Counted from the first letter of the stretch, positions 2-63,422 are shown. The stretch: DNA of 64,000 bases from Nannocystis bainbridge (GCF_028368995.1 NZ_JAQNDL010000005.1:96001-160000); one strand, 5' to 3'. The notes: generated by a model from the letters alone, not told the origin. Numbers and translations are program-made.

Positions 2-829
2 CTCGCCTACGAGCAGGGCCAGGCGGCCAAGGAGGCCGCCGACGACCCCCGCGCCGCCGACGAGTTCGCCCGCGCCTACCGCCTCACGCCCCCGGGCGAG
101 ACCGGCCCGCGGCTGATGCTCCTGCGCGAGAGCGTCGACGCCCGCCTGCGCGCCCACGAGCGCGGCGCTCCTGCGCCTGAGCAGCTGTGCCCGGCCCGCG
201 CCCTGCTGCGCGAGCACCTCGCCGGCGCCGACCCACTCACCGACGAGCGCTCCCGGCTCGCGCGCGTCGAGCAGGGCCTCGGCGCCGTCGACTGCGACGC
301 CCCCGACCGACCTGTCCCTCAGGACATCCCCACCGATCCTCCGCGGGCCCCCGCCGAGGGCCCGCCCCCGGGCCCCGTATCACCTGCCCCACCGGACAGC
401 TCGTCTCCCGCCGACGCCCCGCCATCGCCTGTCCCCATGGACATGTCCTCGAGGTCACCCGCGTCGACCCGCGGTCGCGGCCTGCGGATCGCCGGCGCGG
501 CCGCGCTCGGCCTCGGCGCGGCCGCGCTCGTGCCGATGAGCGTCGGGATCGCCCTCGCCCGCGACGCCACGCGCGACGGCCGGCACTACTGCTGGGGCAG
601 AGAATTCGCCTGCGACGGCGGCATCGACCCGCAGGTCGATGACATCCTGAAGCGCGGCTACAAGGCCGACACCCTCGTCAAGATCGCCGCCCCCGTCGCC
701 GGCATCGCCCTGCTCACCGGCGCCGTCCTGCTCGGCGTCGGCCTGGCCATGCGCGCGCGGGCCCCCGTCGCCGTCGCCCCGCGCCTCGGCCCCGGGACCC
801 TCGGCCTCGGGCTCCAGGGCCGCTTCTGA
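2..829 (+). CDS. 5'-truncated myxobacterial TPR-like membrane protein (PEGA/TPR-type family usually paired with Ser/Thr kinases)
   Basis: The frame is open from the window edge (LAYEQG...AADEFARAYRL). It has a Pro-rich linker, two hydrophobic segments and a C-terminal GLGLQGRF ending typical of this family. Confidence 0.6.
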   Translation, partial: LAYEQGQAAKEAADDPRAADEFARAYRLTPPGETGPRLMLLRESVDARLRAHERGAPAPEQLCPARALLREHLAGADPLTDERSRLARVEQGLGAVDCDAPDRPVPQDIPTDPPRAPAEGPPPGPVSPAPPDSSSPADAPPSPVPMDMSSRSPASTRGRGLRIAGAAALGLGAAALVPMSVGIALARDATRDGRHYCWGREFACDGGIDPQVDDILKRGYKADTLVKIAAPVAGIALLTGAVLLGVGLAMRARAPVAVAPRLGPGTLGLGLQGRF

Positions 830-876
830 CGGCCTCCGCGGCCGCGCGTGTTAGACTCGCGCCCCGCAGGCGACGC

Positions 877-2484
877 GTGGAGGAGGCAGGCGACAGCACG
901 TTCCCGAACTGGCCCGAGCTGCGGCGCCTCTTCACCTACGACGAGCTCGTCGGCAAGGTGCTCCAGGGCCGCTACGAGGTCGTGCGCCGGCTCGGCGCCG
1001 GCGGCATGGGCGTGGTGTTCCTCGCCCGTCACGTCCACCTCGACAAGCTGTTCGCGCTCAAGATCATCAGCGCCCGCTACCTCGACGAGCCGGAGATCGG
1101 TCGCCGCTTCTTGCTCGAGGCCCAGGCCGCCTCGAAGATCGATCACCCCAACGTGGTCGGCATCACCGACTTCGGCCCGCCCGAGGCCGGCCCGACCTTC
1201 TTCGTCATGGAGTACCTCGAGGGCGAGGACCTCGCGCGCACGCTCGCCCGCGAGGGCCCGCTGGCCTGGCCCCGCGCGCTCCACATCGTCACCCAGATCG
1301 CCCGCGCGCTGGTGGCCGCCCACCAGCGCGGCGTCGTCCACCGCGACATCAAGCCGCAAAATTGCCTCCGCGTCGGCCGCGACGGCGACCCCGACTTCAT
1401 CAAGGTCCTCGACTTCGGCCTCGCCAAGATCCTCTCGGCCACCCACAAGAGCACGTGGACCGTGGGCGGCTCCCCCGGCTACATCGCCCCCGAGATCTAC
1501 CGCGGCGGCCGCACCGATCACCGCGTCGACATCTTCGCCCTCGGCGTCGTCCTCCACACCCTCCTGCTCGGCCGCCTGCCCGCGCAGTCCCCCGGCGACG
1601 TCGAGCTGCCGCCGCACGCCCCCGTCCTCCACACCGCCGACCTGCCGCCGCCGCTGCGCGCCATCATCGACCGCGCCACCGCCGAGGACCCCGAGCGCCG
1701 CTACCCCTCGGCCGACGCCCTGCTGGCCGCACTCACCGAGGCGCGCGCCACCATCTCCAGTCCCTCGGGACATGCTCTTAAAGACATGCCCGAAAGGCCA
1801 CGTCCTGCTCGCCGCCGCGGCTTGCTCCTCGCCGCCTCGCTCGGCGGCGCGCTGGCGGTAGCGATCGCGGTCGCCAGCACCCGCGAGGCCTCCGGAGACG
1901 CGGCCCAGCGCGCGAGCGAGCCCGCGGGCGCACGCATGGACACCAGCGAGGCGCGAGAGGCCCCGGCGGACACCGTCGCGGGCATCCCCGAAGCCCCGGC
2001 CGGCTCAGCGAAGGATCCGGCCGTCGCGTCGAGCAGCGGTGAATCGCCCGCCGCACCTGCAACCTCCGCCCCCCTGGCTGCGGGCCCCTCCGCCGCTACA
2101 CGCCCGCCCGAACCCGCGACCTCCGCCGCGACCCCGGCTGCCCTCGAGGACATGTCCGAAGCGACATTACCCGTCCCACCCGCCTCCGGGACCGACACGC
2201 CCCGCCCCGCGAAGCCGCTCGCGCCGTTCGACCCCGCCGCCGCAAAGGCCCAGCTCGAGCGCCGCGCCGCCGACGTGCGCGCCTGCAAGGCCGACTCGAG
2301 CTTTCGCACCATGACCACGACCGTCCGGCTCGCCGGCACCGTCTCCGTCTCGCCCCGGGGCAAGGCGACCGTGACCCTGCCGCCCGGCTACGACGTGAGC
2401 CCCTGCCTGGCGCGCCTGGTCGCGGGCACCCGCTTCCGCCCCAGCCTCGACGGCGGCGAGTTCGCCTTCACCTTCCTGCTGTGA
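877..2484 (+). CDS. Membrane Ser/Thr protein kinase (Hanks type)
   Basis: Kinase motifs LGAGGMGVV, ALK, HRDIKPQN, DFG, YIAPE and DIFALG are present, followed by a TM segment (LLLAASLGGALAVAIAV) and a Pro/Ala-rich extracytoplasmic tail. Confidence 0.95.
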   Translation: MEEAGDSTFPNWPELRRLFTYDELVGKVLQGRYEVVRRLGAGGMGVVFLARHVHLDKLFALKIISARYLDEPEIGRRFLLEAQAASKIDHPNVVGITDFGPPEAGPTFFVMEYLEGEDLARTLAREGPLAWPRALHIVTQIARALVAAHQRGVVHRDIKPQNCLRVGRDGDPDFIKVLDFGLAKILSATHKSTWTVGGSPGYIAPEIYRGGRTDHRVDIFALGVVLHTLLLGRLPAQSPGDVELPPHAPVLHTADLPPPLRAIIDRATAEDPERRYPSADALLAALTEARATISSPSGHALKDMPERPRPARRRGLLLAASLGGALAVAIAVASTREASGDAAQRASEPAGARMDTSEAREAPADTVAGIPEAPAGSAKDPAVASSSGESPAAPATSAPLAAGPSAATRPPEPATSAATPAALEDMSEATLPVPPASGTDTPRPAKPLAPFDPAAAKAQLERRAADVRACKADSSFRTMTTTVRLAGTVSVSPRGKATVTLPPGYDVSPCLARLVAGTRFRPSLDGGEFAFTFLL

Positions 2485-2487
2485 CGA

Positions 2488-2580
2488 GACCTGTCTTCAA
2501 GAACATGTCTGCGAGGACATGCCCTTTCGGCCATGCCCGCTTCGACATGCCCCGAAGCGCATGCCCTGAAGGACAGCCCG
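2488..2580. repeat. 14-bp-pitch array of the GACATGYC / TGTC-N6-GACA motif (7 units)
   Basis: Cores start at 2490, 2504, 2518, 2532, 2546, 2560 and 2574, between convergent genes. Confidence 0.9.
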
Positions 2581-2584
2581 CCTC

Positions 2585-3238
2585 TCACCCCGGCGCCGGC
2601 CCCAGGCCCATGCGCGCCAGCTGGGCGTCGAGCCGCTCCTTCGCCACCCGCAGCCGGCTCTTGGCCGTGTTCTTCGGGATCTCGAACACCGCCGCGATCT
2701 CGGCGCTCGTCATCTCTTGCGCGTAGCGGAGCTCGAGCAAGATCTGCACGTCGAGCGGCAGCTTGCGCAGCGCCGTCGAGAGGCGCTCCAGCTTCGCGTG
2801 CGCCGACGCCACCCGGCTCGGCGACGGCGACAGGTCCTCGAGCGACGACAGGCTCGGGTCGAACTGGGCCGCGCGGGTCTTCTTGCGGTAGTGCGCGAAC
2901 AGGACGAAGCGCGCCGTCCCGTAGAGATAGGCGCGGAACGTCGCCGCGATCGGCTCGCCGTGGGCCACCACCTCGCCCGGCACGACGAAGCGGTCGCGCG
3001 CGTGCGTCAGCGCCTCCCACGTCTGCTGCGCCAGGTCGTCGACCTCGAAGTCGCGCACCTTGTCGGCGAAGAAGCGGACCACGTGCGGCCCGTAGTGGCG
3101 CACCAGCCCGTCGCCGGCGCGCGCGTCTCCGGCCCGCCAGGCCGTCAACAGCGCCAGGTCCTGGTCGTTGCGGGCCATCGCCGCCGCGCGCGGGCCCCCG
3201 GCCTCGACCTGGTCTTCGGGTCTCGTGGGATCGGGCAT
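2585..3238 (-). CDS. ECF-family RNA polymerase sigma-70 factor
   Basis: Region 2 (DLAQQTW...FRAYLYGTARF) and region 4 HTH (LPLDVQILLELRY...AEIAAVFEIPKNTAKSRLR). An alternative start lies at 3178. Confidence 0.9.
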   Translation of the reverse strand: MPDPTRPEDQVEAGGPRAAAMARNDQDLALLTAWRAGDARAGDGLVRHYGPHVVRFFADKVRDFEVDDLAQQTWEALTHARDRFVVPGEVVAHGEPIAATFRAYLYGTARFVLFAHYRKKTRAAQFDPSLSSLEDLSPSPSRVASAHAKLERLSTALRKLPLDVQILLELRYAQEMTSAEIAAVFEIPKNTAKSRLRVAKERLDAQLARMGLGPAPG

Positions 3239-3293
3239 GCGGAGCGGGTCGCGAGGATCGCACGACCCGCCCCGGCCTCCAAGGGCCTGCCGC

Positions 3294-4571: not shown

Positions 4572-5194
4572 TGTCTCCTGTCGCGAAGTTTTCGTCGTCG
4601 AGGCATGACCGACCTGACCTCGAGGACAGGCGATGGGAGGACGATCGCCCGGCCTGGATCGCAGGCGCCGGTCTTGCGCGTTGGCCCAGAGGTGTCGCTA
4701 CCCGCCCGCGGGGATCGAACTTTTTTCGCGCGCCCGAAAAATCCCCCTGGCGCGGATCTGCACATCCGCCCCAGCGGGCCTCCCGGACCCCTCCCGGTCG
4801 CCATGGCGCATCCGTAGATCGCCGGCGCTCGGCCCGCGTGCCGCTCGCGTCCCTGGCCTGACCTGTCCTCACGACCAGGTGCCCAGCGCCCGCCCCCGCC
4901 GCGAGCATCGAAGTCCGGCTGCGCCCGTCCTCGTTCGCACGAGCAGCCGCGACACGTGGCATTCAGAGCCGCACGAGCCGTGATCACCGCTCTCTGTGAA
5001 CGGTCGTCGCCATCCCTACACACTCACTTCGCTGTCGCACCGAGGTGACTCCCCCTCGCGGAACCCACGATGATTTGTCCTTCAAGACATGTCCGTACGA
5101 ACATGTCCCATCGTCCATCGTGGCCTCGCGGCCCCAGCGGCGCCGCAGCCGCGACAGGTGGCGCTGCACGGCGGGCTCGGCGATACTCCCGGCC

Positions 5195-6325
5195 ATGAAG
5201 GCCACCTTCCGCACCTCCCTCGGGTTCTGCGTCCTCCTGCTCGCCTGCGACTCTGCTGCCGAAGGCGGCGGCAAGGTCGAGGCCAAGGCCGACGCCAAGG
5301 CCGACATCAAGCTCGACACCAAGGCCGTCGCCGATGCGGCCGCCAAGGCGCAGGCCGACGCCGACGCCGACGCCAGGGCGGCCGCCGTCGCCGTCGCGCA
5401 GGTGACCATCCCCACGCTCAAGACCGTCGCCGAAGTCGAGGCCGCGCTCGGCACCAAGATCGTGCTGAAGCCCGCCGACCTCGACCTCAAGGGCGTCGTC
5501 GAGCTGCTCGCGAAGGGCGAGATCAAGACCGCCGCCGAGCTCGAGCTGTTCCTCAACGCCCCCGGCGCCGCCGCCCACCGCGTCGACTTCGACGCTGACG
5601 GCAAGCTCGACTACTTGCAGGTCGTCGAGGTCAGGCTCGGCGGCAACGTCGACTTCGAGCTGCGCGCCGTCCCCTCGAGCAAGCTCGACGCCTCGCTCGC
5701 GGTGCTCGTCGCCACCCTGGCGACCGTGCGCGCCGAGGCCGAGGGCGCGCTCAAGGTCGTCGCCAGCTACTCTGCCGCGGTCGAAGGCGGCGCCGAATTC
5801 AAGCTCGAGCGCGACTTCAAGGCCGACTTCAAGGCCGACGGCGTGGTCCTGGCCGACGCGGGCGCCGGCGCCTTCTTCGGCTGGGCCCTCGACGTCAAGC
5901 GCCCGGCCTACGTCAGCGCCCACGTCTCGCCGCTCGACATCCAGATCGCCGCCGACGGGGCCGCGCAGTTCGCCGGCGACGTCTCGGCCTCGCTGGCCGC
6001 CGCCCACCTCGCGGCCCTGCGCGCCGCGATCAAGGTCGAGGCCCTGGCGCTGGCCGCCGTCGACGTGCCCAAGATCGACATCACCCCGCCGAAGGTCGAC
6101 GTCAAGGGCGTCGCCAAGGCCAAGGCCGGCCTCGACGTCGATCACTCGGCCAAGGCCGAGAGCTCGATCAAGGTCGGCTCGGGCGGCGGCGTCAACGTCG
6201 GCAGCGGCGGGATCAAGGTCGGCGGCAGCGCCGGCATCTCCGTGGGCGGCGGCGGCGGCGTCTCGGTCGGCGGCGGCGGCAGCGGCAAGGGCAAGGCCGG
6301 CGCCGGCATCAAGATCGGCAAGTGA
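5195..6325 (+). CDS. Hypothetical lipoprotein with a Ca-binding-like DFDADGKLD loop and a Gly-rich C-terminal tail
   Basis: Lipobox LLAC, GC3-rich codons and a GGIKVGG-type tail. Confidence 0.75.
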   Translation: MKATFRTSLGFCVLLLACDSAAEGGGKVEAKADAKADIKLDTKAVADAAAKAQADADADARAAAVAVAQVTIPTLKTVAEVEAALGTKIVLKPADLDLKGVVELLAKGEIKTAAELELFLNAPGAAAHRVDFDADGKLDYLQVVEVRLGGNVDFELRAVPSSKLDASLAVLVATLATVRAEAEGALKVVASYSAAVEGGAEFKLERDFKADFKADGVVLADAGAGAFFGWALDVKRPAYVSAHVSPLDIQIAADGAAQFAGDVSASLAAAHLAALRAAIKVEALALAAVDVPKIDITPPKVDVKGVAKAKAGLDVDHSAKAESSIKVGSGGGVNVGSGGIKVGGSAGISVGGGGGVSVGGGGSGKGKAGAGIKIGK

Positions 6326-6442: not shown

Positions 6443-6538
6443 CGCCATGCCCGATGGGGCATGTCCGTCCAGACATGCCCCCTCCGACATGTCCTTCAGC
6501 ACCTTCTCTTTCGGACATGCCTTTTTAAGCCATGTCCG
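6443..6538. repeat. 14-bp-pitch CATG motif array
   Basis: Cores at 6446, 6460, 6474, 6488, (6502 degenerate), 6516 and 6531, between convergent genes. Confidence 0.85.
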
Positions 6539-6542: not shown

Positions 6543-7232
6543 CTACCCCATGATCCGGCGGACCAGCAGGTCGGACAGGATGCTGAGCGCGTCCAGCGTC
6601 GACTGGCCCTTGCGGCGCGACCATTCCGTGTAGCGGATCGTCACCGGCACCTCGACGAAGCGCAGGCGCAGGCGGCGGATCTCGTGCAGGATCTCCGACG
6701 CGTGGGCCATCCGGTTCTGCGTGATCCGCAGCGCCCGCGCGGCCGGGGCCGTGAACGCCCGCAGCCCGTTGTGCGTATCGGTGAGGTCGAGCCCCGCCGC
6801 CGCCCGGGTGAACGCCGTCGCCAGGCGCAGCAACATGCGCCGGCCCTGCGGCATGTCGATCGTCCCGCCGAGGAAGCGCGAGCCGAGGGCCACGTCGGCG
6901 CGGCCCTCCGCCAGCGGCGCCACCAGGGCCGCGACGTCCTCCGCGCGGTGCTGGCCGTCGCCGTCGAACGTCACCACGTAGCGGGCCCCACGGGCCAGCG
7001 CCAGCTCGATGCCGGTCTGCAGGGCCGCGCCCTGGCCGAGGTTGACCGCGTGCCGCACCACCGTCGCCCCGGTGACCTCGAGGCGCGCCGCGGTGTCGTC
7101 GCTCGAGCCGTCGTCGACCGCGATCACGTGCGGCCAGGCTCGCCGCAGCTCGGCCAGCACCTCGCCGATCACCGGCCCCTCGTTGAAACAGGGCACCACG
7201 ATCGTCACGTCCGCGGGCGAGGCCGGCGCCAT
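6543..7232 (-). CDS. Glycosyltransferase family 2 (DPM1/polyprenol-phosphate glycosyltransferase-like)
   Basis: Motifs VVPCFNE, VDDGSSD, NLGQGAAL, TFDGDGQH, GSRF and DTHNGLRA. Confidence 0.9.
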   Translation of the reverse strand: MAPASPADVTIVVPCFNEGPVIGEVLAELRRAWPHVIAVDDGSSDDTAARLEVTGATVVRHAVNLGQGAALQTGIELALARGARYVVTFDGDGQHRAEDVAALVAPLAEGRADVALGSRFLGGTIDMPQGRRMLLRLATAFTRAAAGLDLTDTHNGLRAFTAPAARALRITQNRMAHASEILHEIRRLRLRFVEVPVTIRYTEWSRRKGQSTLDALSILSDLLVRRIMG

Positions 7233-10113: not shown

Positions 10114-10233
10114 CGGGCATGCCCCCAAGGGCATGTTCACGAAAACATGTCCCCGAGTACATGTCCGAATCGACATGCTCTCGGGGACAGCACCATCACC
10201 GATTACGGAGGACATGCCCCGAAGGACACGTCC
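10114..10233. repeat. 14-bp-pitch CATG motif array
   Basis: Cores at 10118, 10132, 10146, 10160, 10174 and 10188, then 10213 and 10227, between convergent genes. Confidence 0.9.
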
Positions 10234-15051: not shown

Positions 15052-16290
15052 ATGGCCACCGAAACGCAACGAGCCGCGCTCGATCGCATGACGCGAGCGC
15101 TCCACCTGTCGGGCGCCGCGGTGTTCGAGTTCGAGGATCTGGCCGCCGACGACCCGCTCGCAGCCGACGCGCCGGCGTTTTACGACGAGCGGGTCGCCGC
15201 GCTGCTCGGGCACCCGGGCGACGCTCCGCCGGTGCTCGGCACCTGGCTCGCCGCGCTTCACCCCGACGAGCGCGAGCGCCTGCGGGCCGCGCGGCGCGAG
15301 CTGTTGCTGGCCGGCGGCAGCGCGTCGATCGAGTACCGCGTGGTCATCGGCGGCGCGACGCGCTGGTGGCAGGAGCAGAGCGAGGCCGCGACGACGCGAC
15401 CGGGCCGCGCCTCGTTGGTCGCCGTCGTCCGCGACATCACCGACGAGCGCAGCGAGCAGGAGGACGCCCGCCGCTCCGTCGAGCTGCTGCGCCAGACCCA
15501 GGCCGCCGGGGCGGTCGGCGGCTGGGAGGTCGACCTCGTCAACAACACGCTCTACTGGACCGCCGAGACCCACCGCCTGCACGAGGTCCCGCCGGGCTTT
15601 GTCCCCGACCTCGCCACCGCCATCAATTTCTACGCCCCCGAGCACGTCCCGATCATCTCCGCGGCCGTCGAACGGTGCATGCGCGGCGAGCCCTACGACG
15701 TCGAGCTCGAGATCGTCACCTACCGCGGCCGTCGCCGCCACGTGCAGGCCGCCGGCGTCCCGTATTACGAGGACGGCCGGCTGATCCGCCTCTACGGCAT
15801 CTTCCGCGACATCACCGACCTGCGCCGCCGCGAGGACGAGCTGCGGGCCCAGATCGAGATCATCGCCCAGCAGGACAGCGCGATCCGCCAGCTCTCGACG
15901 CCGATCATCCAGCTGTGGGACCACATCCTCACCCTCCCGCTGGTCGGCACCATCGACGCCGCGCGGGCGGCCCACATCATGGAGCGGCTGCTCGCCGAGG
16001 TCACGCGCACGCGGGCGCGCTTCGCCATCCTCGACCTCACCGGCGTCGAGGCCCTCGACGACGCCACCGCCGACCACCTGGTCCGCCTGGTCCGCGCCGT
16101 CGACCTGCTGGGTGCCCGCGGCGCCCTGTGCGGCCTCCAGCCCGGCGTCGCCGACTCGCTCACCGCCTCGGGCATCGAGCTCGGCGGCGTCGTCACCTAC
16201 CGCAACCTCCACGAGGCGCTGCAGCGCTGCATCCACGCCCTGGGCCGCGCGCGCCCGAACGTGACGCCGCAGATGTCCTCGCGGACATGA
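15052..16290 (+). CDS. PAS-domain / STAS protein (RsbR-like)
   Basis: PAS/PAC segments (GGWEVDL, RDITD), then STPIIQLW..ILTLPLVGTIDAARA and ILDLTGV. Confidence 0.9.
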   Translation: MATETQRAALDRMTRALHLSGAAVFEFEDLAADDPLAADAPAFYDERVAALLGHPGDAPPVLGTWLAALHPDERERLRAARRELLLAGGSASIEYRVVIGGATRWWQEQSEAATTRPGRASLVAVVRDITDERSEQEDARRSVELLRQTQAAGAVGGWEVDLVNNTLYWTAETHRLHEVPPGFVPDLATAINFYAPEHVPIISAAVERCMRGEPYDVELEIVTYRGRRRHVQAAGVPYYEDGRLIRLYGIFRDITDLRRREDELRAQIEIIAQQDSAIRQLSTPIIQLWDHILTLPLVGTIDAARAAHIMERLLAEVTRTRARFAILDLTGVEALDDATADHLVRLVRAVDLLGARGALCGLQPGVADSLTASGIELGGVVTYRNLHEALQRCIHALGRARPNVTPQMSSRT

Positions 16291-16362
16291 CCCATCGGAC
16301 ATGCCCCTTCGGGCCTGTCCTGTCGTCCATGCCCCGAAGGACATGCCCGTGGGCGCATGTCC
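16270..16362. repeat. 14-bp-pitch CATG motif array (7 units)
   Basis: Cores at 16272, 16286, 16300, 16314, 16328, 16342 and 16356. The array spans the STAS gene stop, between convergent genes. Confidence 0.9.
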
Positions 16363-16377
16363 TCCGGCGCCGCCGCC

Positions 16378-32922: not shown

Positions 32923-33126
32923 GCTTTGGCGTTCGGGCGCGACGCTCGCCGAGTCCGCGATTCGGCCGCGCGTCGCTGTCGGCGCGCGCCCCCGAAAAAT
33001 TGCGACATGTGACAGCCCCGTCGCGGCTTCGCCCTCCGCGCGCCAAATTGTCGCTGAACGGCCCTCGCCTGGCCCCTAAAACCGCGAAAACCCGCTGGCA
33101 CGTCTGCTGCAACCGAGGCCCCCCAG

Positions 33127-34627: not shown

Positions 34628-34689
34628 GCCGCGCCTCCCTGCATCCGCGTCCGCGTCTGCCCCGGCCGCATAAGGTCGCGCCCCGTCAC
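34624..34689 (-). CDS. Putative translationally coupled mini-ORF, 21 aa (MTGRDLMRPGQTRTRMQGGAA)
   Basis: The GTG overlaps the upstream TGA, its own TGA overlaps the radical SAM GTG, and a GGAGG RBS precedes it. Confidence 0.4.
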   Translation of the reverse strand: MTGRDLMRPGQTRTRMQGGAA

Positions 34690-34760
34690 GCCGCCCCTCC
34701 CGACTGCACCGCCCCGCGTCGCAGCCGCTTACGCGCCCGCTCCAGGTCGCGCCCCGTCAT
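34686..34760 (-). CDS. Putative translationally coupled mini-ORF, 24 aa (MTGRDLERARKRLRRGAVQSGGAA)
   Basis: ATGA and GTGA overlaps at the two ends; GGAGG RBS. Confidence 0.4.
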   Translation of the reverse strand: MTGRDLERARKRLRRGAVQSGGAA

Positions 34761-34840
34761 GCCGCCCCTCCCGACTGCACCGCCCCGCGTCGCAGCCGCT
34801 TAGGCGCCCGCTCCGGCCGCGCCAGGTCGTGCACCGTCAC
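34757..34840 (-). CDS. Putative translationally coupled mini-ORF, 27 aa (MTVHDLARPERAPKRLRRGAVQSGGAA)
   Basis: The GTG overlaps the UbiA stop; GGAGG RBS. Confidence 0.4.
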   Translation of the reverse strand: MTVHDLARPERAPKRLRRGAVQSGGAA

Positions 34841-39840: not shown

Positions 39841-40243
39841 GGCTCCCCTCCGCTGCAAGCCGGTGGCCGCGTTGATCTTTCTCAGGAAATCGCGACGGGC
39901 GGGCCGCCCTCCGTCAACTCGATTGGCCAACTTGATTGCGAAGACAACTCTATTGACATACTGGGGCTTGGAGACCTCACTTTCTAATTCCCGCGATTCT
40001 GCGCCTAAATACAGACTATGAAACAAACGCTCGTGCGATTCGACAACTTGGATGACACCGGCATCCACCTGCAGACCGCTCGAAACCGCTCTTATATAAG
40101 ATATAAGCCAACAGACGAGCCCATCGTTGCGGCCCCGCGCCCACACTCGACCTGTCCCCAAGGACATATTCATCCCGTTCACCGCGCCGGGGAGCCGCTG
40201 TCTCAGTCCCGGCTGCTCCGACTCGCCCTCGCTCGCCCGCCGC

Positions 40244-42221: not shown

Positions 42222-42341
42222 GCGCTCGCACCTGTCCCGAGAGACAGCCGCCAGGCCGGTCCCCGCGCGAGGCACATGTCCCGGAAGACAGCTCGCTCCG
42301 CGCCGACGCCGTGGCGCTCGCACATGTCCCGCGGGACAGCC
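42222..42341. repeat. Three TGTC-N6-GACA motif pairs
   Basis: Core pairs 42231/42245, 42275/42289 and 42323/42337, between convergent genes. Confidence 0.8.
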
Positions 42342-49092: not shown

Positions 49093-49141
49093 TGACATGT
49101 CCGTTCCGACATGCGCCCTCGGACATGCCCCGAACGACAGG
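49093..49141. repeat. 14-bp-pitch motif array (4 units)
   Basis: Cores at 49096, 49110, 49124 and 49138, just past the regulator's stop codon. Confidence 0.85.
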
Positions 49142-49149
49142 ATCGACGC

Positions 49150-50496
<1,347 letters not shown>

Positions 50497-50688
50497 GTCG
50501 CCCGTAGCCTAGCCGACCCGGCGCGCGCCCGCCTGCCCCCCACGGCGCCGGCTCACCCGCGGCCTCGCCAGCGGCTCCTCGCGCCTGCCCCGCCGCCCCG
50601 GATATTGACTTCGCCGCCCGGCCCGGGGACACCCGAAGACACGTGCCCGCCCCGCCCCCGCCCCGCGCCGCCGACCGCCCGCCCGCCG

Positions 50689-50753
50689 CGCGTGCCCCTT
50701 CGGACATGCCCGATCGGACCGGTCCCGAAGGACCTGTCCTGAGCGACATGCCC
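50689..50753. repeat. 14-bp-pitch motif array (5 units) upstream of the histidine kinase
   Basis: Cores at 50691, 50705, 50719, 50733 and 50747. Confidence 0.8.
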
Positions 50754-50765
50754 GAGGAGCCATCC

Positions 50766-51830
50766 ATGCTGTCGCCGCGCGCCTTCGTCCGCGTGTGGCT
50801 GCCGATCGCCGCCTTCACCGCCCTGCACTACGGCACCGGCATGGAGCACGACTGGGCCCACGACGTCCTGCGGCGCATGTACTACCTGCCGATCGTGCTG
50901 GCCGCCTTCGACCACGGCCTGCGTGGCGGCCTGCTCGCGGCCGCCGTGTCATCGCTGGTCTACCTGCCGCACGCCTTCTCACTGTCGCCCGGGCACCACC
51001 ACGACCCCGGCGGCGGGGTCGACAAGGCGCTCGAGGTGCTCCTCTACAACCTCGTCGGCGCGACCGCGGGCCTGCTCGCCGACCGCGAGCGCAGCCGCCG
51101 GCGCGAATTACAGCGGGCCCTCGCCGACCAGCGGCGGCTCACCCGCGAGCTCGTGCGCGCCGGTCGGCTCTCGGCCCTCGGCGAGGTCGTCGCCGGCCTC
51201 GCCCACGAGATCAAGAACCCGCTGCACGCCCTCGCCGGCACCGCCGAGGTCGTCGGCCCGCTCATCCCGCCCGACGCCGAGGAGCGGCGCATGTGGGACA
51301 TCCACGTCGCCGAGCTGGGCCGCCTGTCGCGCCTCGCCGAGCGCTTCCTGTCGTTCGCTCGCCCGAGCCCGAGCGAGCTGATCGCCCTCGACCTCCGCCG
51401 CGTCGCCGAGCAGGTCGCCGAGCTTTGCGTCGCCGAGGCCCGCGGCAAGCGGGTCGAGGTCGAGCTCGACCTGCCCGAAGCGCCCGTCGCCATCCGCGGC
51501 GACCGCGATCAGCTGGCCAGCCTCGGCCTCCACATCGCCGTCAACGCCCTGCGCGCGATCGCCTCGACCGGTCACCCGGGTCGCCTGCGGATCGCCGCCC
51601 GCGTCGAAGGTGACCACGCGCTGCTGGTCCTCGACAACGACGGCCCGCCGCTGACCGTCAGCGAGCGCCCGCAGCTGTTCACCCCGTTCTACAGCGGCGA
51701 CGCCCAGGGCACCGGCCTCGGCCTCGCCATCGCCGCCCGCGTCGCCGATCAGCACGGCGGCAGCGTCGACGCCGAGAACGCCGGCCTCGGCGTCCGCTTC
51801 ACCCTGCGCCTGCCCCGGCTCGCCGCCTGA
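50766..51830 (+). CDS. Membrane sensor histidine kinase with a His-rich sensor region
   Basis: AHEIKNPL, DNDG, FTPF and GTGLGL; the TM region carries HDWAHD and HHHD; RBS GAGGAG. Confidence 0.92.
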   Translation: MLSPRAFVRVWLPIAAFTALHYGTGMEHDWAHDVLRRMYYLPIVLAAFDHGLRGGLLAAAVSSLVYLPHAFSLSPGHHHDPGGGVDKALEVLLYNLVGATAGLLADRERSRRRELQRALADQRRLTRELVRAGRLSALGEVVAGLAHEIKNPLHALAGTAEVVGPLIPPDAEERRMWDIHVAELGRLSRLAERFLSFARPSPSELIALDLRRVAEQVAELCVAEARGKRVEVELDLPEAPVAIRGDRDQLASLGLHIAVNALRAIASTGHPGRLRIAARVEGDHALLVLDNDGPPLTVSERPQLFTPFYSGDAQGTGLGLAIAARVADQHGGSVDAENAGLGVRFTLRLPRLAA

Positions 51831-51938
51831 AAGCACATGGCGCCCGGGACATGTCCCGCGCGCCATGGGGTACCTGCGATCCGCAGGGTCTGCGGCACAA
51901 AAGCACATGGCGCTCGGGACATGTCCCGAGCGCCATGT
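51831..51938. repeat. REP-like pair of palindromes with a 70-bp period; the second is a perfect 34-bp palindrome
   Basis: AAGCACATGGCGC(C/T)CGGGACATGTCCCG(C/A)GCGCCATG occurs at 51831 and 51901. Positions 51905-51938 are a perfect palindrome. Confidence 0.9.
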
Positions 51939-51953
51939 CGCTGCGCGCCTCGA

Positions 51954-52598
51954 CTACATCTTCTTGACGTAGGCGGCGACCGCGTCGATCTCTTCCTTCG
52001 ACAGCTTGTCCTTGAACGCCTTCATCTTGGTGCCGTCGACCCCGTCGGCGATCGCCTTGACCACCGCGGCCTTGCTGTGCTTGGACTGCCAGTCCTTCGC
52101 GGCCATGTCTGGGATGTTGTTCTTCTTCTGGACCTCGGCGCCCTTGCCGTCGGCCGCGTGGCAGACCTTGCACTTGCCGTCGTAGATCGCCTTGGCGTCG
52201 ATCTTGGCCGAGGCGTCCTCGGTCTTCTTCGGCTCGGTCTTCTTCGGCTCGGCCTTCTTCGCCTCCGGCGCCTTCGCGTCCGACGCCTTGGCGTCGCCCT
52301 CGGGGGCCTTGGCGTCGCCCGCGGGCGGGGTCGCCTCGGCCGCCTTCGCGTCCTCGGCAGCCTTCGCGTCCGCCGCTGCCTTGGCGTCCTCGGCCGCCTT
52401 CGCGTCCGCTGCCGCCTTCGCGTCCGCCGCCGCCTTCGCGTCCGTCGCCGCCTTCGCGTCCGCTGCCGCCTTCGCGTCGTCGACCTTGGCCTCGACCTTC
52501 TTCTCCTCGGTCTTGGCGCCGCTATCGCAAGCGACCAGCGCCACCGCGGCGCACAGTCCGACGTTGCGGGTGATTCTCAGGACGGTCTTCAGGGTCAT
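51954..52598 (-). CDS. Lipoprotein monoheme cytochrome c with an Ala/Lys/Asp repeat tether
   Basis: Lipobox LVAC, (AAADAK)n repeats, CKVCH heme motif and a distal KMKAF Met ligand. Confidence 0.88.
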   Translation of the reverse strand: MTLKTVLRITRNVGLCAAVALVACDSGAKTEEKKVEAKVDDAKAAADAKAATDAKAAADAKAAADAKAAEDAKAAADAKAAEDAKAAEATPPAGDAKAPEGDAKASDAKAPEAKKAEPKKTEPKKTEDASAKIDAKAIYDGKCKVCHAADGKGAEVQKKNNIPDMAAKDWQSKHSKAAVVKAIADGVDGTKMKAFKDKLSKEEIDAVAAYVKKM

Positions 52599-52878: not shown

Positions 52879-54447
<1,569 letters not shown>

Positions 54448-57017: not shown

Positions 57018-57031
57018 ACACACCTCCTCGA

Positions 57032-57104
57032 TGGACAGGGCGGGGTTCGAACCCGCGACCTCCGCGCTGCCAGCGCGGCGCTCTCCCAGCTGAGCTACGA
57101 GCCC
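57032..57104 (-). tRNA. tRNA-Ala(GGC) with an atypical acceptor stem and no encoded CCA
   Basis: Folds into a cloverleaf with D-arm GCTC/GAGC, anticodon arm CCGCG-CTGGCAG-CGCGG and T-arm GCGGG-TTCGAAC-CCCGC. G3:U70 and A73 are present; U5:U68 and C6:C67 are mismatched. Confidence 0.85.
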
Positions 57105-57127
57105 GGAACAAACGACATGGATCTCGA

Positions 57128-57200
57128 TGGAGAAGGTCGGACTCGAACCGACGACCTCCTGCGTGCGAAGCAGGCGCTCTCCCGACTGAGCTACGACCCC
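57128..57200 (-). tRNA. tRNA-Ala(CGC) with an atypical acceptor stem and no encoded CCA
   Basis: Anticodon arm CCTGC-TTCGCAC-GCAGG and T-arm GTCGG-TTCGAGT-CCGAC. G3:U70 and A73 are present; U5:U68 and C6:U67 are mismatched. Confidence 0.85.
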
Positions 57201-57477
57201 GTTTTCGACGCGTCCCCGCGTCGCTACTCACCCGCGGCGACGAACGCCCGTCAGCCGCCGGCGGTCCGCCGATCCGCGCAGCCCGACGATCGATTCGACG
57301 AATGGGCGACATGTCCGAACGGACATGTCACGACATTCGCCGAATCACCGCACAATCGCGGCGACTCGTCTTGCGATTCGGATCAAGGCGACCGCGACAT
57401 CCATCGCGGTCGAGACGCCGACCGACGCCGCGGGGCCGCTCTCGGATTCTCGGATCGGACCGCCCTGCGGTCGCGGA

Positions 57478-59746: not shown

Positions 59747-59807
59747 GGTCCGGCGAGGCTGCGCGACCTCACTCCGCGCCGCCCTGCCTGCGCGGTACCA
59801 TGGCGAG

Positions 59808-62090
59808 ATGCGCCCTGCCCTCACCTTGCCTGTCTTCTTCGCCCTCGCCGCTTGCGGCGACGACACCGGCACCACCACCGGGGCGACGGCCACCGACAGC
59901 AGCAGCACGACCACCGGGCCGACGTCCTCCCCGACGGCCGCGTCCGAGGGCCTGAGCGACACCGCAGCGCCGACGACCACCAGCGGCGGCAGCGACAGCG
60001 ACAGCGCCTCGACCGGCACCACCGCCGCCCCGACCACCGAGGGCACCACCACCGGCGGCGAGCTCACCTGCGACCAGTCGCCCCACTACCGCGTCGGCGC
60101 GGCGATCCGCGACATCACCGGCCCGTCCGCCGAGCTGGTGATGATGGGCTACTCGATGCCCGAGCAGAAGGCCGAGGGCATCAGCACGCGGCTGTGGGCC
60201 CGCGCCTTTGTCGTCGAGCACCCGTGCAGCGGCACCCGGATCGCCTTCGTCAGCGCCGACCTCGGCCAGGTGTTCCAGGGCGTCCACCTCGAGGTCGTCA
60301 AGCGGCTCAAGGCCAAGCTCGGCGCCGACCGCTACGACTTCGACAACATCGCCCTCTCGGCCACGCACACCCACTCGGGCCTCGGCGGCTTCTCCCACTA
60401 CACCATGTTCAACCTGGCCGTCGGCGGCTACGACCCCGACAACTTCGAGGTCATCGTCGCCGGCATCGTCGACGCCATCGAGGCCGCCGACGCCGGCCTC
60501 GATCACGGCGTCGTCAAGATCGCCCAGGGCCCGCTGCAGGACGCCAATTGGAACCGCAGCCCGCAGGCCTACGCCGAGAACCCCGACCCCGAGCGGGCCG
60601 CCCACGAGGCCGAGATGATGCGCGACACCAACACGGCGATGACCGTGCTCCGGTTCGAGCGCACCGGCGAGGGCGAGCTCGACGGCCAGCCGATCGGCAT
60701 GCTGACCTGGTTCTCCAGCCACGCGACCAGCGTGTCCAACCAGAACCGCCTCGTCAGCGGCGATCACAAGGGCCTCGCCTCCTACTTCATGGAGAAGCAC
60801 TTCGGCGCCGACTACACCGCGCCCGACCCATTCGTCGCCGCCTTCGCCCAGAGCGACGCCGGCGACGTCTCGCCGAGCGAGGTCATCGTCGGCGAGCCGA
60901 AGAACACGGTCGTGCGCCCGTGCGACGACAGCCCCGACCCTGCCTGCGACGACCTCGGCAACGCCGTCGTCCATGGCACCTGGCAGTACGAGCGCGCGCT
61001 CGAGCTGTTCGACGCCGCGGCCGAGCACCTGCGCGGGCCGGCGGCCGGGCGGCTCGCCTTCGTCGACATGGAGGACGTCACGATCGGCCCCGAGTTCACC
61101 GGCGACGACGAGCACACCACCTGTCACGCCGCGATCGGCTTCTCGATCGCCGCCGGCGCCGAGGACGGCGTCGCCGTCGCCTTCATCGAGGAGGGCATCG
61201 TCTACGGCGACCTGCCCAAGGTCACGCTCGTGCCCGAGGACCAGGCCTGTCACGAGGAGAAGACCATCTTGCTGCCGGTCGGCCGCATGCTCCCGTATCC
61301 CTGGTCGCCGACGATCTTGCCGGCCCAGGTGCTGCGCCTCGGCAGCCTCGCCATCCTGCCCGCGCCCTTCGAGGTCACCACGATCTCCGGCCGAAGGCTG
61401 CGCCACTCCGTGCTCGACGCGCTCGCCGGCACCGGCGTCACCCGGGCCGTGGTCGCCGGGCTCTCGAACGGCTACTCGAGCTACGTCACCACCCGCGAGG
61501 AGTACGCCGTCCAGCACTACGAGGGCGCGTTCACGCAGTTCGGCCCGTGGACCCTCGCCGCCTGGCAGCAGGAGTTCTCGCAGGTCGCCGAGGCGCTGCG
61601 CGACGGCGTCCAGGCGCCACACAAGGCCGTCCCGCTCGACCTCAGCGACGACCAGATCCTCAACGTCCCCGGCGTCGTCGCCGACTCGCCGTGCGCCCTG
61701 CTCGACGCCATCCTGTGCCCGTTCGACAAGTTCGGCGACGTCGTCACCCCGCCGCCCGCCAGCGCCGGGCCGGGCGACCTGGTCAAGGTCACCTTCCGCG
61801 GCGCGCACCCTCGCAACAACCTGCGCACCGGCACCGGCTACCTCGAGGTCCAGCGCGACGACGGCGGCACCTGGACCGTCGTCGCCCACGACTGGGACCC
61901 CGAGACGCGGTTCCGCTGGCGGCGCACCGGCGGCGCGCTGAGCCCGACCTCCGAGGTCGACGTCGAGTGGAAACTCCCCGACGACGTCGTGCCCGGCACC
62001 TACCGCATCGTCTACAACGGCGACGCCAGGTCGCTGTTCGCCACCTTCACCCCGATCACGGGCACCTCGCCGACCTTCACCGTCCAGTGA
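59808..62090 (+). CDS. Neutral/alkaline non-lysosomal ceramidase lipoprotein
   Basis: DITGP, MMGY, RLWARAF, ATHTHSG, NRSP, HATS, GDVSP, GAEDG and QHYEGA; lipobox LAAC followed by a Thr stalk. Confidence 0.92.
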   Translation: MRPALTLPVFFALAACGDDTGTTTGATATDSSSTTTGPTSSPTAASEGLSDTAAPTTTSGGSDSDSASTGTTAAPTTEGTTTGGELTCDQSPHYRVGAAIRDITGPSAELVMMGYSMPEQKAEGISTRLWARAFVVEHPCSGTRIAFVSADLGQVFQGVHLEVVKRLKAKLGADRYDFDNIALSATHTHSGLGGFSHYTMFNLAVGGYDPDNFEVIVAGIVDAIEAADAGLDHGVVKIAQGPLQDANWNRSPQAYAENPDPERAAHEAEMMRDTNTAMTVLRFERTGEGELDGQPIGMLTWFSSHATSVSNQNRLVSGDHKGLASYFMEKHFGADYTAPDPFVAAFAQSDAGDVSPSEVIVGEPKNTVVRPCDDSPDPACDDLGNAVVHGTWQYERALELFDAAAEHLRGPAAGRLAFVDMEDVTIGPEFTGDDEHTTCHAAIGFSIAAGAEDGVAVAFIEEGIVYGDLPKVTLVPEDQACHEEKTILLPVGRMLPYPWSPTILPAQVLRLGSLAILPAPFEVTTISGRRLRHSVLDALAGTGVTRAVVAGLSNGYSSYVTTREEYAVQHYEGAFTQFGPWTLAAWQQEFSQVAEALRDGVQAPHKAVPLDLSDDQILNVPGVVADSPCALLDAILCPFDKFGDVVTPPPASAGPGDLVKVTFRGAHPRNNLRTGTGYLEVQRDDGGTWTVVAHDWDPETRFRWRRTGGALSPTSEVDVEWKLPDDVVPGTYRIVYNGDARSLFATFTPITGTSPTFTVQ

Positions 62091-62101
62091 GGTCGCACCT
62101 C

Positions 62102-62166
62102 GGGACATGTCCTCCAGGGCATGTCCCGGGCGCCATGTCCTTCACGACATGCCCTTTACGCCAGGT
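62102..62166. repeat. 14-bp-pitch motif array (5 units)
   Basis: Cores at 62106, 62120, 62134, 62148 and 62162, between convergent genes. Confidence 0.88.
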
Positions 62167-62479
62167 CGACCGGCCGGAAGCGCGCGAACGGCCGCCCCAG
62201 CTCGGCCACCTCCCCCGGCGCGATCAGCTGGCACACGCCCTCGAGCTGCTGCCACAGCTGTTGCACCACCGGGTTCTCGTGGGCGCGGCGGGCTGCGTCC
62301 TCGGAGGCCCACTCGAACACCTCGAGGATGGTGCCGTCGTTCGCGCGCATCACGATCGGCTCGCGCTCGGTGGCCAGGTCCTGGGCGCGCAGCACCGGCA
62401 GGTGGCCGCGCAGGAGCTCGAGCAGCTCCTCGGCGCGACCGGGGAGGGGGCGGTAGCAGGCGATGACGATGACTCCCAT
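62156..62479 (-). CDS. Small ABM / dimeric alpha-beta-barrel-like protein
   Basis: MGVIVIACYRPLPG...EVFEWASEDAARRAHENP. Confidence 0.7.
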   Translation of the reverse strand: MGVIVIACYRPLPGRAEELLELLRGHLPVLRAQDLATEREPIVMRANDGTILEVFEWASEDAARRAHENPVVQQLWQQLEGVCQLIAPGEVAELGRPFARFRPVDLA

Positions 62480-62510
62480 TTCACAGCCGTAGCGCGCGGC
62501 CGGGGGGCGG

Positions 62511-63422
62511 TCAAGGACGCGCGGGCGTACGCGACACGCTGGCCGCGTAGATGGCCGCCAGCGACAGCGCCGTGCCAGCGGCCTCGACCATCCCGAACGG
62601 CTCGGCGAACACCAGCACGCCCCACAGCGTGGCCAGCACCGGCTGCAGGAGCAGCAGCAGCGAGCCGCTCGCGGCCGGCACGTGCGGCATGCCGCGCGAG
62701 ATGAGCGCCCAGCCGCCCACGTGCGCGCCGACCCCGAGCAGCAGCAACAGGCCGAAGTCGCTGGAGCTCGCCACCGCCAGCGGCTCGCCGGTCGCCAGCG
62801 CCGCCAGCACCAGCAGCGCCGCCGCCGTCGCGCTCGACACGAACAGTGCCGCCGCGACCCCGAGCGGCCGCTCGCCGCGCTGGGCTGTCCGCAAGGACAG
62901 GTAATAACCGGCGTAGAACACACCCGTCAGCAGGCCCAGCAACACGCCCTGCAGGTGGACCGGGCTGCGCTCCAGCCCCGGCAGCGCCAGCATCGCCGTG
63001 CCGATCAAGGCCAGCAGCGCGCACACCCCGAGCCGCCGCGTCAGCCGCTCGCCGAGCAGCAGCGCCGAGAACAGCGCGACCCAGAACACCTGCGTGTTGG
63101 CCAGCAGCGTCGCCAGACCGGTGCCCGAGTACAGGATGCTCTTGTGCCACACGAACAGGTCGCCGGCGAAGCACGCGCCGGCCAGAGCCGCCCACGCGGT
63201 CGCCGGGCCGCGGCGCACGGCCTGTCCGTTCGGACCTGTCCGCGAGGACAGCCACGCCAGCGGCAGCAGAGCGGCCGCCCCGAGCCCGCAGCGGTAAGCC
63301 CCGATCGCCGCCGGCCCGAGCGCGATCCACTTGACGAACAGCGCCGTCACGCTGATCACCGCCGCCCCGAGAGCGACCAACACCAGCGGCGCGCGCGGGG
63401 GAGAAAGAGGGGCCATCACCAA
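62511..63422 (-). CDS. DMT / EamA family transporter
   Basis: About 10 TM segments, LLGERL, and LLQPV.ATLWG.LVFAE. Confidence 0.9.
   Translation of the reverse strand: MVMAPLSPPRAPLVLVALGAAVISVTALFVKWIALGPAAIGAYRCGLGAAALLPLAWLSSRTGPNGQAVRRGPATAWAALAGACFAGDLFVWHKSILYSGTGLATLLANTQVFWVALFSALLLGERLTRRLGVCALLALIGTAMLALPGLERSPVHLQGVLLGLLTGVFYAGYYLSLRTAQRGERPLGVAAALFVSSATAAALLVLAALATGEPLAVASSSDFGLLLLLGVGAHVGGWALISRGMPHVPAASGSLLLLLQPVLATLWGVLVFAEPFGMVEAAGTALSLAAIYAASVSRTPARP

Follow-up and report, generated by a model that had tools for sequence, protein, structure and literature searches.

A family of short dyad repeats specific to the genus Nannocystis is described here from a stretch of 64,000 nucleotides of N. 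bainbridge DNA (hereafter the window) and from the 11-Mb genome. The basic unit is a 20-bp palindromic dyad, RCMTGYCC-N4-GGRCAKGY, and 4737 units are distributed over 2616 loci genome-wide. Adjacent units overlap in ACATGT, which leads to tiling at a pitch of 14 bp. The closest known kind is the REP/BIME family. The reading favoured here, with a probability of roughly 40%, is that the repeat is REP/BIME-like and specific to the genus, and that a putative sequence-specific dimeric reader of duplex DNA would hold its sequence and spacing. A purely RNA-hairpin role at the 3′ ends of genes is a strong rival to this reading.

The pitch is apparent from the positions of CATG. Genome-wide, 3736 CATG pairs are found at lag 14 versus tens at lag 13. 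In the five contigs, lag 14 gives 1546, 786, 884, 303 and 217 pairs and lag 13 gives, in the same order, 25, 16, 21, 7 and 3; for the contig with 1546 pairs, the 113 pairs at lag 15 match the 3-periodic coding background. Within the window, 33, 18 and 14 pairs occur at lags 14, 28 and 42, and 0-5 at lags 6-13 and 15-27. Hence the 14-bp pitch of the cores claimed in a preliminary description of the window is confirmed there and in all five contigs by the autocorrelation it had suggested. The count over spacings, also suggested there, gave genome-wide one sharp peak for TGTCC-Nk-GGACA (k=0-20), with 1987 occurrences at k=4, 379 at k=18 (one pitch further) and 0-19 at the remaining values (16 at k=3, 5 at k=5). 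The window contains 21 copies of TGYCC-N4-GGRCA for 0.37 expected, a number reached in 0 of 100 dinucleotide shuffles. The looser C[AC]TG-N10-CA[TG]G occurs 64 times for 3.47 expected (shuffle maximum 12), so that the earlier estimate of about 50 small loci was of the right order. These enrichments were controlled by the k-profile and dinucleotide shuffles instead of a codon-preserving shuffle. The motif had been correctly described as TGTC-N6-GACA with C[A/C]TG cores; the arrays end in half-sites facing inward, and dyads spanning the spacer outnumber CATG-centred palindromes two to one (1987 vs 956). Outside the 20-bp dyad, flank profiles are at background level, with no conserved sequence there and no T-run after the units.

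All six arrays cited in the preliminary description were recovered, with coordinates that agree exactly or to within a few bases. The array at 2487-2575 (7 cores, 6 dyad units) begins 3 nt past the stop codon of a Ser/Thr kinase gene (877-2484, +) and fills the convergent gap to an ECF sigma gene (2585-3238, -). The 7 units at 16269-16371 overlap the stop codon of a PAS/STAS gene (15088-16290, +), which faces a 5′-nucleotidase gene (16378-18312, -), and relatives have 4-5 units at this site. At 10115-10180, five CATG cores and a GGGACAG end lie in a convergent gap past a stop at 10094, together with a single unit at 10215-10228; the array at this site (10115-10228) is kept with 3-5 cores in five of five relatives. 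Five units at 62094-62165 fill the convergent gap that separates gene 59808-62090 (+) from gene 62156-62479 (-), and four cores at 49093-49141 lie 9 nt downstream of the stop of an NtrC-like gene (49150-50496, -). The sixth array (5 units, 50693-50762) occupies a rare divergent position, with the NtrC-like gene (-) on one side and, on the other, a histidine kinase gene (50748-51830, +). Further arrays are found at 6443-6517 (4-5 units), in the convergent gap of genes 5195-6325 (+) and 6543-7232 (-) and at the same site in 5/5 relatives examined; at 32709-32760 (3-4 units), in tandem context 18 nt past the stop of gene 31252-32691 (+); and at 51833-51867 and 51903-51940 (2-3 cores each), within one convergent gap.

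Smaller loci are also found in the window. A cluster of three (313-326, 385-398 and 430-457) lies within a weak gene call and, because relatives show low identity (67-89%) and indels across 313-457, this stretch may be non-coding. The kinase reading frame (877-2484) contains 2-3 cores at 1768-1805, in its poorly conserved C-terminal half, where both CATG cores are invariant across the six genomes compared, and two units at 2139-2166, kept in 5/5 relatives. A two-core locus (5085-5108) precedes gene 5195-6325, a single full dyad with two CATG cores (57307-57330) lies ~110 nt upstream of a tRNA gene pair, and a single unit (28143-28156) is within a gene call. The other loci are single units at 34285-34298, 40153-40166, 42325-42338 and 62886-62899 and two-unit loci at 49462-49489 and 63223-63250.

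Gene positions and contexts throughout were taken from a crude codon-bias gene finder built for the analysis, with no annotation used. Units are located 2-30 nt downstream of stop codons, 40% of the stop-to-unit distances (n=2176) falling within -14 to +30 nt. Of the intergenic regions, 36% of the convergent, 11.5% of the tandem and 7% of the divergent ones contain a unit. Arrays of at least five cores number 319 in convergent, 154 in tandem and 8 in divergent contexts and 28 inside gene calls, convergent gaps making up only 308 kb of the 1821 kb of intergenic DNA; the location of arrays past stops, mostly between convergent genes, was therefore rightly recognised in the preliminary description. 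Similarly, 641 arrays of at least three units are at 3′ ends versus 61 at 5′ ends, and the 404 tandem arrays lie a median of 19.5 nt past the upstream stop and 184.5 nt ahead of the next start. Only 3 of the 102 tRNA genes are followed by a unit within 150 nt, compared to 18.5% of protein genes (p=4e-6), which argues against a general terminator. About 800 single units are inside gene calls, whereas other spacings that keep the same frame relation (k=1, 7, 10, 13) occur 23-33 times across the whole genome, and most of these 800 genic units are in sequence with normal codon bias (GC3 0.914 vs 0.936 at random positions). The chromosomal spread is even, with 12-66 intergenic loci per full 250 kb and no empty domain on the five contigs. 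Hence a domain marker of the matS/MatP type was rejected, and the analogy with matS drawn earlier does not hold.

The element is present in 9 of 10 other Nannocystis genomes and absent from all 20 genomes of other genera in the sample of relatives and from 300/300 further genomes of the phylum. Within the genus, units and arrays are vertically inherited: among 33 orthologous intergenic loci, 30 still carry a unit in one relative (G005) and 26 in another (G003), and units deviating from the consensus are common to several species at the same position, which indicates that the arms are not undergoing re-homogenisation. The number of units at one orthologous locus ranges from 1 to 7 between species. 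A smaller Nannocystis genome (G009) contains single units at about half the density and few arrays, suggesting that arrays expanded in part of the genus. Between species, the arms and the N4 spacing are conserved and the spacer letters diverge as other intergenic DNA does: spacers are 42-46% identical, as compared to 38-47% for other intergenic DNA. Within the arms, identity reaches 74-77% for TG/CA and 59-64% for the three inner bases, values which may be inflated since any unit aligns well with any other. At 11 loci of equal length, the corresponding arm values are 94% (TG/CA) and 87.5% (inner bases), with spacers at 53%. CATG is the best-kept portion of the array.

The bases between the cores vary freely at fixed pitch, as the preliminary description had noted: 231 of the 256 possible spacer tetramers occur (effective number 105). 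At its edges the spacer favours Y (left) and R (right), and the two do not covary; spacers are unbiased with respect to which strand is transcribed (chi-square 48.2, 37 df, p=0.10). The two arms are nearly independent of each other, with an arm-pair mutual information of 0.003-0.017 bits in arrays and at most 0.044 bits in single units; at the only position with two common letters, the arms are non-complementary in 294 of 774 intergenic single units. Complementarity across the spacer is slightly raised, ~4% above a control of units two apart (p=0.001), and position -1/+14 of intergenic single units is complementary in 480 cases for 388 expected. The sense strand of tandem contexts is enriched in arm combinations compatible with G.U pairing (643 T-G vs 442 C-A, p=1e-9).

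Since the sequence rather than the base pairing is kept, and the spacing is constant, the unit is most likely read as duplex DNA. A putative sequence-specific homodimer would bind one TGYCC-N4-GGRCA unit per dimer and tile head to tail along the array, successive dimers being rotated by ~120 degrees, so that three units would span four helical turns. ACATGT being self-complementary, a full unit would have the hexamer at both ends, 14 bp apart, and replication slippage between the two copies, common to neighbouring units, could add units at exactly 14 bp. Such a protein array at the ends of transcription units might form a boundary blocking read-through or, alternatively, a place where an enzyme relaxing the supercoils of converging transcription is loaded or anchored, and the RNA hairpins of the same sequence would be a by-product or a second function. 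The dimeric DNA-tiling protein already proposed in the preliminary description is consistent with the invariant spacing, the conserved arms around nearly free spacers, the near-independent half-sites, the lack of strand bias, the excess of genic units, the few tRNA genes with a unit downstream and an operator-like geometry. Against it, the searches gave no candidate protein, the strong preference for 3′ ends is a hallmark of RNA-level elements such as REP, and the strong hairpins, the G.U-type asymmetry and the small excess of complementarity favour the RNA-hairpin rival. The canonical operator of PadR-type winged-helix dimers is given as ATGT-N8-10-ACAT (PMC3506622), and the unit, read as (A/C)TGT-CC-N4-GG-ACA(T/G), has the ATGT-N8-ACAT geometry given there. 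PadR itself was rejected as reader, because the PadR domain profile (PF03551; 14/14 control genomes matched) gave 0 matches in the genome at E<=0.001, with 13 candidates scored. A Pfam scan of 20 of the 22 genes flanked by arrays on both sides revealed no DNA-binding protein and no transposase. It is tentatively suggested, as a rather doubtful possibility, that the repeats constitute a genus-specific genome-wide boundary code, in which a putative dimeric protein would polymerise on sites phased at 14 bp where about one in four transcription units ends, acting as a stop or insulator that separates converging genes or as a platform for topoisomerase loading. If true, the ends of transcription units would be marked by a protein polymerising on phased sites; to our knowledge, bacteria are not known to mark them by such protein arrays.

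The strong rival dispenses with a dedicated reader. In this explanation, which is on the unlikely side, hairpins formed at the RNA level would stop or slow RNA polymerase or block 3′-5′ exonucleases, as for E. coli REP, and common descent together with local duplication would maintain the consensus. The unit being palindromic, the module would serve both genes of a convergent pair. Its placement past stop codons, in tandem arrays as well as in convergent gaps, is as expected, and so are the sense-strand asymmetry and the slight excess of complementarity. Predicted hairpins are strong in the six arrays tested (z -3.1 to -7.1, 6/6), and gaps with units have a mean fold z of -4.5. Convergent gaps lacking units average -1.5 and divergent gaps -0.3, with z below -2 in 36% and 8% of them, respectively, suggesting that hairpins are wanted between convergent genes in any case. 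In the window, Rfam families at gathering score were limited to two tRNAs, with nothing at the element. There is also a precedent, as REP325 is reported to act in part as a Rho-dependent terminator and to stabilise mRNA (bioRxiv 10.64898/2026.03.23.713779). However, a hairpin requires pairing only, yet the sequence is conserved and covariation is almost nil; the loop length is constant, although loops of 3-6 nt would fold; spacers lack strand bias and no T-run follows the units; and neither the scarcity of units after tRNA genes nor their excess within genes is predicted.

A selfish REP/REPIN- or MITE-like element, copied by a putative enzyme recognising its hairpin in single-stranded DNA, is improbable. 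Such copies would accumulate at gene ends because insertions are least harmful there, and the thousands of copies in one genus only, the REP- and MITE-like bias towards convergent gaps and away from promoter regions, the 1 to 7 copies at the same locus and the expansion in part of the genus are consistent with this origin. Nevertheless, the Y1/RAYT transposase (PF01797) had 0 matches in the genome, which is 90.5% complete, the control profile matching 6 of 14 known genomes; the array-flanked genes scanned include nothing transposase-like; viral contigs gave no match to the element; and the flank profiles contain no conserved sequence beyond the 20-bp dyad. Spacer diversity near the maximum implies that whole units are not copied from a master, loci are stable between species, and genic units are impossible as insertions of 14 or 20 bp. 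A MITE in particular was rejected for its interior, just 4 nt and free in sequence, and for the loci kept in the two relatives. The units could also be preferred sites of DNA gyrase or another type II topoisomerase at the positive supercoils of converging transcription, with the 4-bp CATG centre as a possible staggered cleavage site. This would be a special case of the protein-reading model with a housekeeping enzyme and no new protein. Gyrase binds REP/BIME clusters in E. coli, the location between convergent genes and past transcription units fits, and CATG is best conserved within arrays. The proposal is nonetheless very improbable, as the unit is centred on the spacer and not on CATG, and an enzyme common to all bacteria leaves the restriction of the motif to one genus unexplained. 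The dimeric reader of duplex DNA is kept as the preferred reading.

No published description was found in the literature on Nannocystis repeats, in agreement with the earlier statement that the element is not a described one, and GGACATGTCC was met only in p53 papers. REP, which the preliminary description had named only as a refuting case, turns out to be the nearest known kind. REP/BIME of Enterobacteria and Pseudomonas are likewise short imperfect palindromes in hundreds to thousands of species- or genus-specific copies, extragenic, at 3′ ends and between convergent genes, often clustered and able to form RNA hairpins. A conserved GTAG-type tetranucleotide head beside the stem defines REP, and this is missing from the Nannocystis flank profiles, as is a RAYT gene, in REP systems typically flanked by REPs, from the genome. 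Furthermore, REP/BIME alternate in orientation with variable linkers, whereas the Nannocystis units overlap by six bases at fixed pitch, have a loop of constant length (4 nt) and unconstrained sequence and are also in excess within genes. Intrinsic terminators similarly place a G+C-rich hairpin just past the stop, bidirectional between convergent genes; an intrinsic (Rho-independent) terminator was rejected because the Nannocystis hairpin, with its fixed stem sequence, lacks a T-run and is rare after tRNA genes. MetJ met-boxes are tandem operator arrays cooperatively bound by dimers, and MetJ/PadR-type operators resemble the arrays in their palindromic boxes placed head to tail at strict pitch with independent half-sites; however, they are few boxes in the promoters of particular regulons, in contrast to thousands of units at gene ends. 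The dRS3/NIME elements of Neisseria have short inverted arms around a fixed-length variable spacer, in hundreds of copies often forming intergenic arrays, and dRS3 arms flank longer repeat units and act as integration targets. The Nannocystis element shares the inverted arms, the fixed-length variable spacer and the intergenic arrays, but its units lie directly against one another, and there was no sign of a link to an integrase. The analogy with uptake sequences proposed earlier was not sustained, and a DNA uptake sequence was rejected: the excess of TGTCC/GGACA over Markov expectation, ~9,500 words, equals the number of arms in the 4,737 dyad units (~9,500), so that the half-site is not over-represented once dyads are accounted for, whereas in USS/DUS a single oriented word is abundant. 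USS/DUS dyads of Pasteurellaceae and Neisseria consist of an abundant genome-specific word in inverted pairs at gene 3′ ends, as terminators, and also within genes (PMC5217627); the Nannocystis word likewise occurs as inverted pairs at 3′ ends and inside genes.

The 14-bp periodicity that the preliminary description reported for the window extends to the whole genome (11.05 Mb in 5 contigs, 71.5% G+C). The arrays cited there are present in the sequence, and CATG cores in the window lie 14 nts apart in 33 pairs, 28 in 18 and 42 in 14, whereas each of the lags 6-13 and 15-27 has 0-5 pairs. Genome-wide, CATG autocorrelation gives 3736 pairs at lag 14 versus 72 at lag 13. The proposed pattern C[AC]TG-N10-CA[TG]G is enriched in the window (64 versus 3.47 expected), as is TGYCC-N4-GGRCA (21 observed versus 0.37 expected), and neither count was reached by any shuffle. 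In keeping with the TGTC-N6-GACA palindrome noticed initially, the spacing profile of TGTCC-Nk-GGACA (k from 0 to 20) has a single sharp peak of 1987 occurrences at k=4; the next unit along contributes 379 at k=18, and the remaining values of k give 0-19 each. A conservative detector, which extends one exact unit through units with at most 2 mismatches, located 4737 units in 2616 loci across the genome. Single units make up 1670 of these loci, while 448, 173, 99, 127, 78, 15 and 6 loci contain two, three, four, five, six, seven and eight units, respectively, and the distribution shows a shoulder for loci of 5-6 units.

The cores lie in a consensus GGRCATGYCC, after which come four bases with a G+C content of 55.5%, below that of the genome. 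Two observations show that the centre of the working unit is this four-base spacer and not CATG. The unit just beyond the last exact CATG (1602 ends of 801 chains) retains its inward half (T 0.51, G 0.69, YCC 0.56-0.57), whereas CA (0.38, 0.25) and GGR of its outward half are close to background; and the spacer-centred dyad is twice as frequent as the CATG-centred palindrome GGACA-TGTCC (1987 versus 956). The full element, seen in single units, is the 20-bp dyad R-C-[A/C]-TGYCC-N4-GGRCA-[T/G]-G-Y, the outer letters of which are the C[A/C]TG and CA[T/G]G described previously. In arrays, units are tiled by overlap at 14 bp, adjacent units having the outer hexamer ACATGT in common. Because ACATGT is self-reverse-complementary, a full single unit contains this 6-bp sequence twice in direct orientation at a distance of 14 bp, and replication slippage between the two copies would be a simple route for adding units at exactly this pitch. 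Perfect symmetry is avoided in the 10-mer around CATG (A..T 1480 versus 1625 expected, G..C 357 versus 502 expected, p=1e-23), as if T/A-type and C/G-type units alternated along an array, and adjacent units in arrays genome-wide tend to differ in type, TGTCC..GGACA lying beside TGCCC..GGGCA. This asymmetry may come from the loss by slippage of perfectly repeated neighbours or from avoidance of perfect 10-bp palindromes. Spacers within one array are mostly unrelated, with identical neighbours in 106 of 2740 cases (3.9% versus 1.2% expected). A larger symmetry within arrays was considered and rejected, the spacers being weakly related (reverse complements two units apart in 63 of 1605 cases, 3.9% versus 1.15%).

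Units are placed just past the stops of protein genes. With gene positions taken from a codon-bias gene finder developed for this analysis (7958 calls, 82-85% coding by contig), which makes the contexts approximate, there are 1474 convergent, 5007 tandem and 1472 divergent gaps, of which 530 (36%), 576 (11.5%) and 106 (7%), respectively, contain at least one unit and 18.9%, 3.1% and 0.3% at least three. Tandem arrays (n=404) lie a median of 19.5 nt past the upstream stop and 184.5 nt ahead of the next start. The distance from stop to unit peaks at 2-8 nt, and in 46 cases the first triplet of the unit is the stop codon itself. Among protein genes, 18.5% are followed by a unit within 150 nt, a share that rises to 25% for apparently operon-terminal genes, versus 4.6% with a unit upstream, and only 3 of the 102 tRNA genes genome-wide have a downstream unit. 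The units are spread across all five contigs without visible chromosomal domain bias, which removes the suggested analogy with domain markers. Genes adjoining arrays are functionally unrelated and, in the window, encode a kinase, an ECF sigma factor, an NtrC-like regulator, a histidine kinase, a nucleotidase and a PAS/STAS protein. The NtrC-like sigma-54 activator gene (49150-50496, minus strand) is followed by an array and contains a two-unit locus (49462-49489), and a five-unit array lies in the divergent region upstream that it shares with the histidine kinase gene (window 49093-50762). The clustering of these three loci is probably a coincidence.

About 800 single units lie inside gene calls, at every position along genes. 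Of the 796 to which a frame could be assigned, 444, 286 and 66 fall in the three frames. Spacings other than N4 with an equivalent frame relation occur only 23-33 times genome-wide. Examples in the window are found at 28143-28156, 34285-34298 and 62886-62899. Most intragenic units lie in normal codon bias (GC3 0.914 versus 0.936), and about a quarter are in indel-prone stretches (26% versus 4.6% at random positions), where some gene calls are doubtful. Intragenic units often follow a rare T-ending codon, and either selection or mutation may account for them. In the Ser/Thr kinase frame at 877-2484, the kinase domain spans residues 33-243, and the remainder is poorly conserved between species and contains the unit loci 1768-1805 and 2139-2166; hence the frame may be over-extended, or its tail disordered.

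The dyad family is specific to the genus. The two-core pattern occurs 330 times here, 134-229 times in five large Nannocystis genomes and 0-21 times in five smaller ones, and was absent from 8 other genera of the family and 12 other families of the class. The two-unit pattern had no match in 300 further genomes of the phylum or in viral contigs. In the convergent gap that follows the 5'-nucleotidase gene, the array of 7 units in the window corresponds to 4-5 units at the orthologous place in four Nannocystis records, which have an off-consensus third unit in common, and to nothing in Nannocystaceae MAGs or Sorangium. Across the window's first 20 kb, arrays of 1 to 7 units lie at matching places in five relatives, and one array is represented by scattered single units in other genomes. 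Along two 400-kb syntenic stretches, a unit is retained at 30 of 33 intergenic loci in one Nannocystis genome (G005) and 26 of 33 in another (G003). Over long times, arm letters and spacing have been kept and spacer letters have drifted. In G005 and G003, respectively, identity is 74% and 77% for the arm TG/CA and 64% and 59% for inner arm bases, values which may be inflated by the repeated consensus, versus 46% and 42% for spacers, 47% and 38% for other intergenic DNA and 85% and 83% for third codon positions. At 11 loci of equal length, arms are 94% and 87.5% identical versus 53% for spacers. In a smaller Nannocystis genome (G009), the density of single dyads is roughly half of that here and arrays are few (8 CATG pairs at lag 14 per 200 kb versus 96 here), and a genome of another genus has neither; therefore the dyad predates the arrays, which grew in place.

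Sequence and spacing rather than pairing are conserved, the constraints do not depend on the direction of transcription, units are enriched within genes and tRNA genes almost lack them, which together suggest that duplex DNA is recognized by a putative homodimeric protein tiling along the arrays (probability roughly 0.4). The main rival, an RNA-hairpin module, is possible but somewhat doubtful. RNA folding of arrays is strong (z -3.1 to -7.1), G.U-compatible arm combinations are favoured on the sense strand (643 versus 442, a shift of about 5 points per single position), unit-free convergent gaps are more structured than divergent ones (z below -2 in 36% versus 8%), and the 3'-end bias is itself typical of RNA-level elements. 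The arm statistics are nevertheless unlike those of a selected stem. Loop length is invariant, mutual information between paired arm positions across the spacer is 0.005-0.008 bits, and complementarity there exceeds a two-units-apart control by about 4 points (p=0.001, R/Y position). Both A/C and T/G are common at position -1/+14 of intergenic single units, and there 480 pairs are complementary and 294 are not, versus 388 complementary pairs expected. Array-like loci mixed with isolated ones could give such an association without any pairing. In tandem contexts, spacers are not biased by which strand is transcribed (p=0.10). In convergent gaps genome-wide, spacer tetramers and their reverse complements are used unevenly on the plus strand (p=0.0016), an asymmetry unexpected there which may reflect replication-strand bias or non-independent duplicated units.

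A selfish element with a putative mobiliser is improbable: the genome has no Y1/RAYT transposase, and no DNA-binding protein or transposase was found among 20 scanned of the 22 genes flanked by arrays on both sides, which encode ordinary enzymes, transporters, one histidine kinase and unknowns. That the units are topoisomerase sites is more improbable still. The four readings are not mutually exclusive, since E. coli REPs are, according to bioRxiv 10.64898/2026.03.23.713779, both transposase substrates and 3' regulators. As for the reader of the proposed homodimer sites, the geometry of the canonical PadR operator, given as ATGT-N8-ACAT in PMC3506622, matches the unit, but PadR was rejected because the genome has no PadR domain. 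The analogy with uptake words also failed, the half-site not being an abundant stand-alone word; in dyad terminators formed by USS/DUS, as outlined in PMC5217627, the abundant unit is a single word, unlike here.

Rfam contains no family matching the element, the sole matches in the window being two tRNA genes (57032-57200, minus strand), and no published description was found in the literature searched, the coverage of which stops short of subscription journals and supplementary files. For most abundant bacterial intergenic repeats, such as REP, BIME and MITEs, the explanation is a transposase, RNA hairpins or a combination of the two. REP/BIME are the closest known kind, with copy number, taxon specificity, 3' placement and hairpin potential in common; the Nannocystis element differs in having no associated RAYT, in its overlapping fixed-pitch tiling, in its loop of fixed length and free sequence, and in its intragenic enrichment. 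The sequence statistics point away from both usual explanations, with letters and spacing conserved, pairing not, no RAYT in the genome and enrichment within genes. If the sites are read by a protein, Nannocystis would be a clear case of a sequence-coded gene-end mark, and its 14-bp unit, open to changes of spacing or pairing, would serve as the experimental handle. If they act as hairpins alone, the arrays would provide operon-end markers for large, poorly annotated myxobacterial genomes and, for engineered natural-product producers, a transferable 3' module that works in both directions, and the 1-7 units per locus in sister species would form a natural series on the growth of short tandem palindromes.

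The window also contains other tandem repeats. A C-rich 71-bp repeat (34673-34823, 2.1 copies, 95% matches) does not belong to the 14-bp family, and two others lie inside minus-strand gene calls, with a period of 84 bp (53296-53592, 3.5 copies, in 52879-54267) and of 54/18 bp (52298-52482, in 51954-52598). The repeat unit of a 46-bp tandem duplication (32849-32942, 2.0 copies, 89% matches) includes the dyad-like GATGTC-N6-GACATG.
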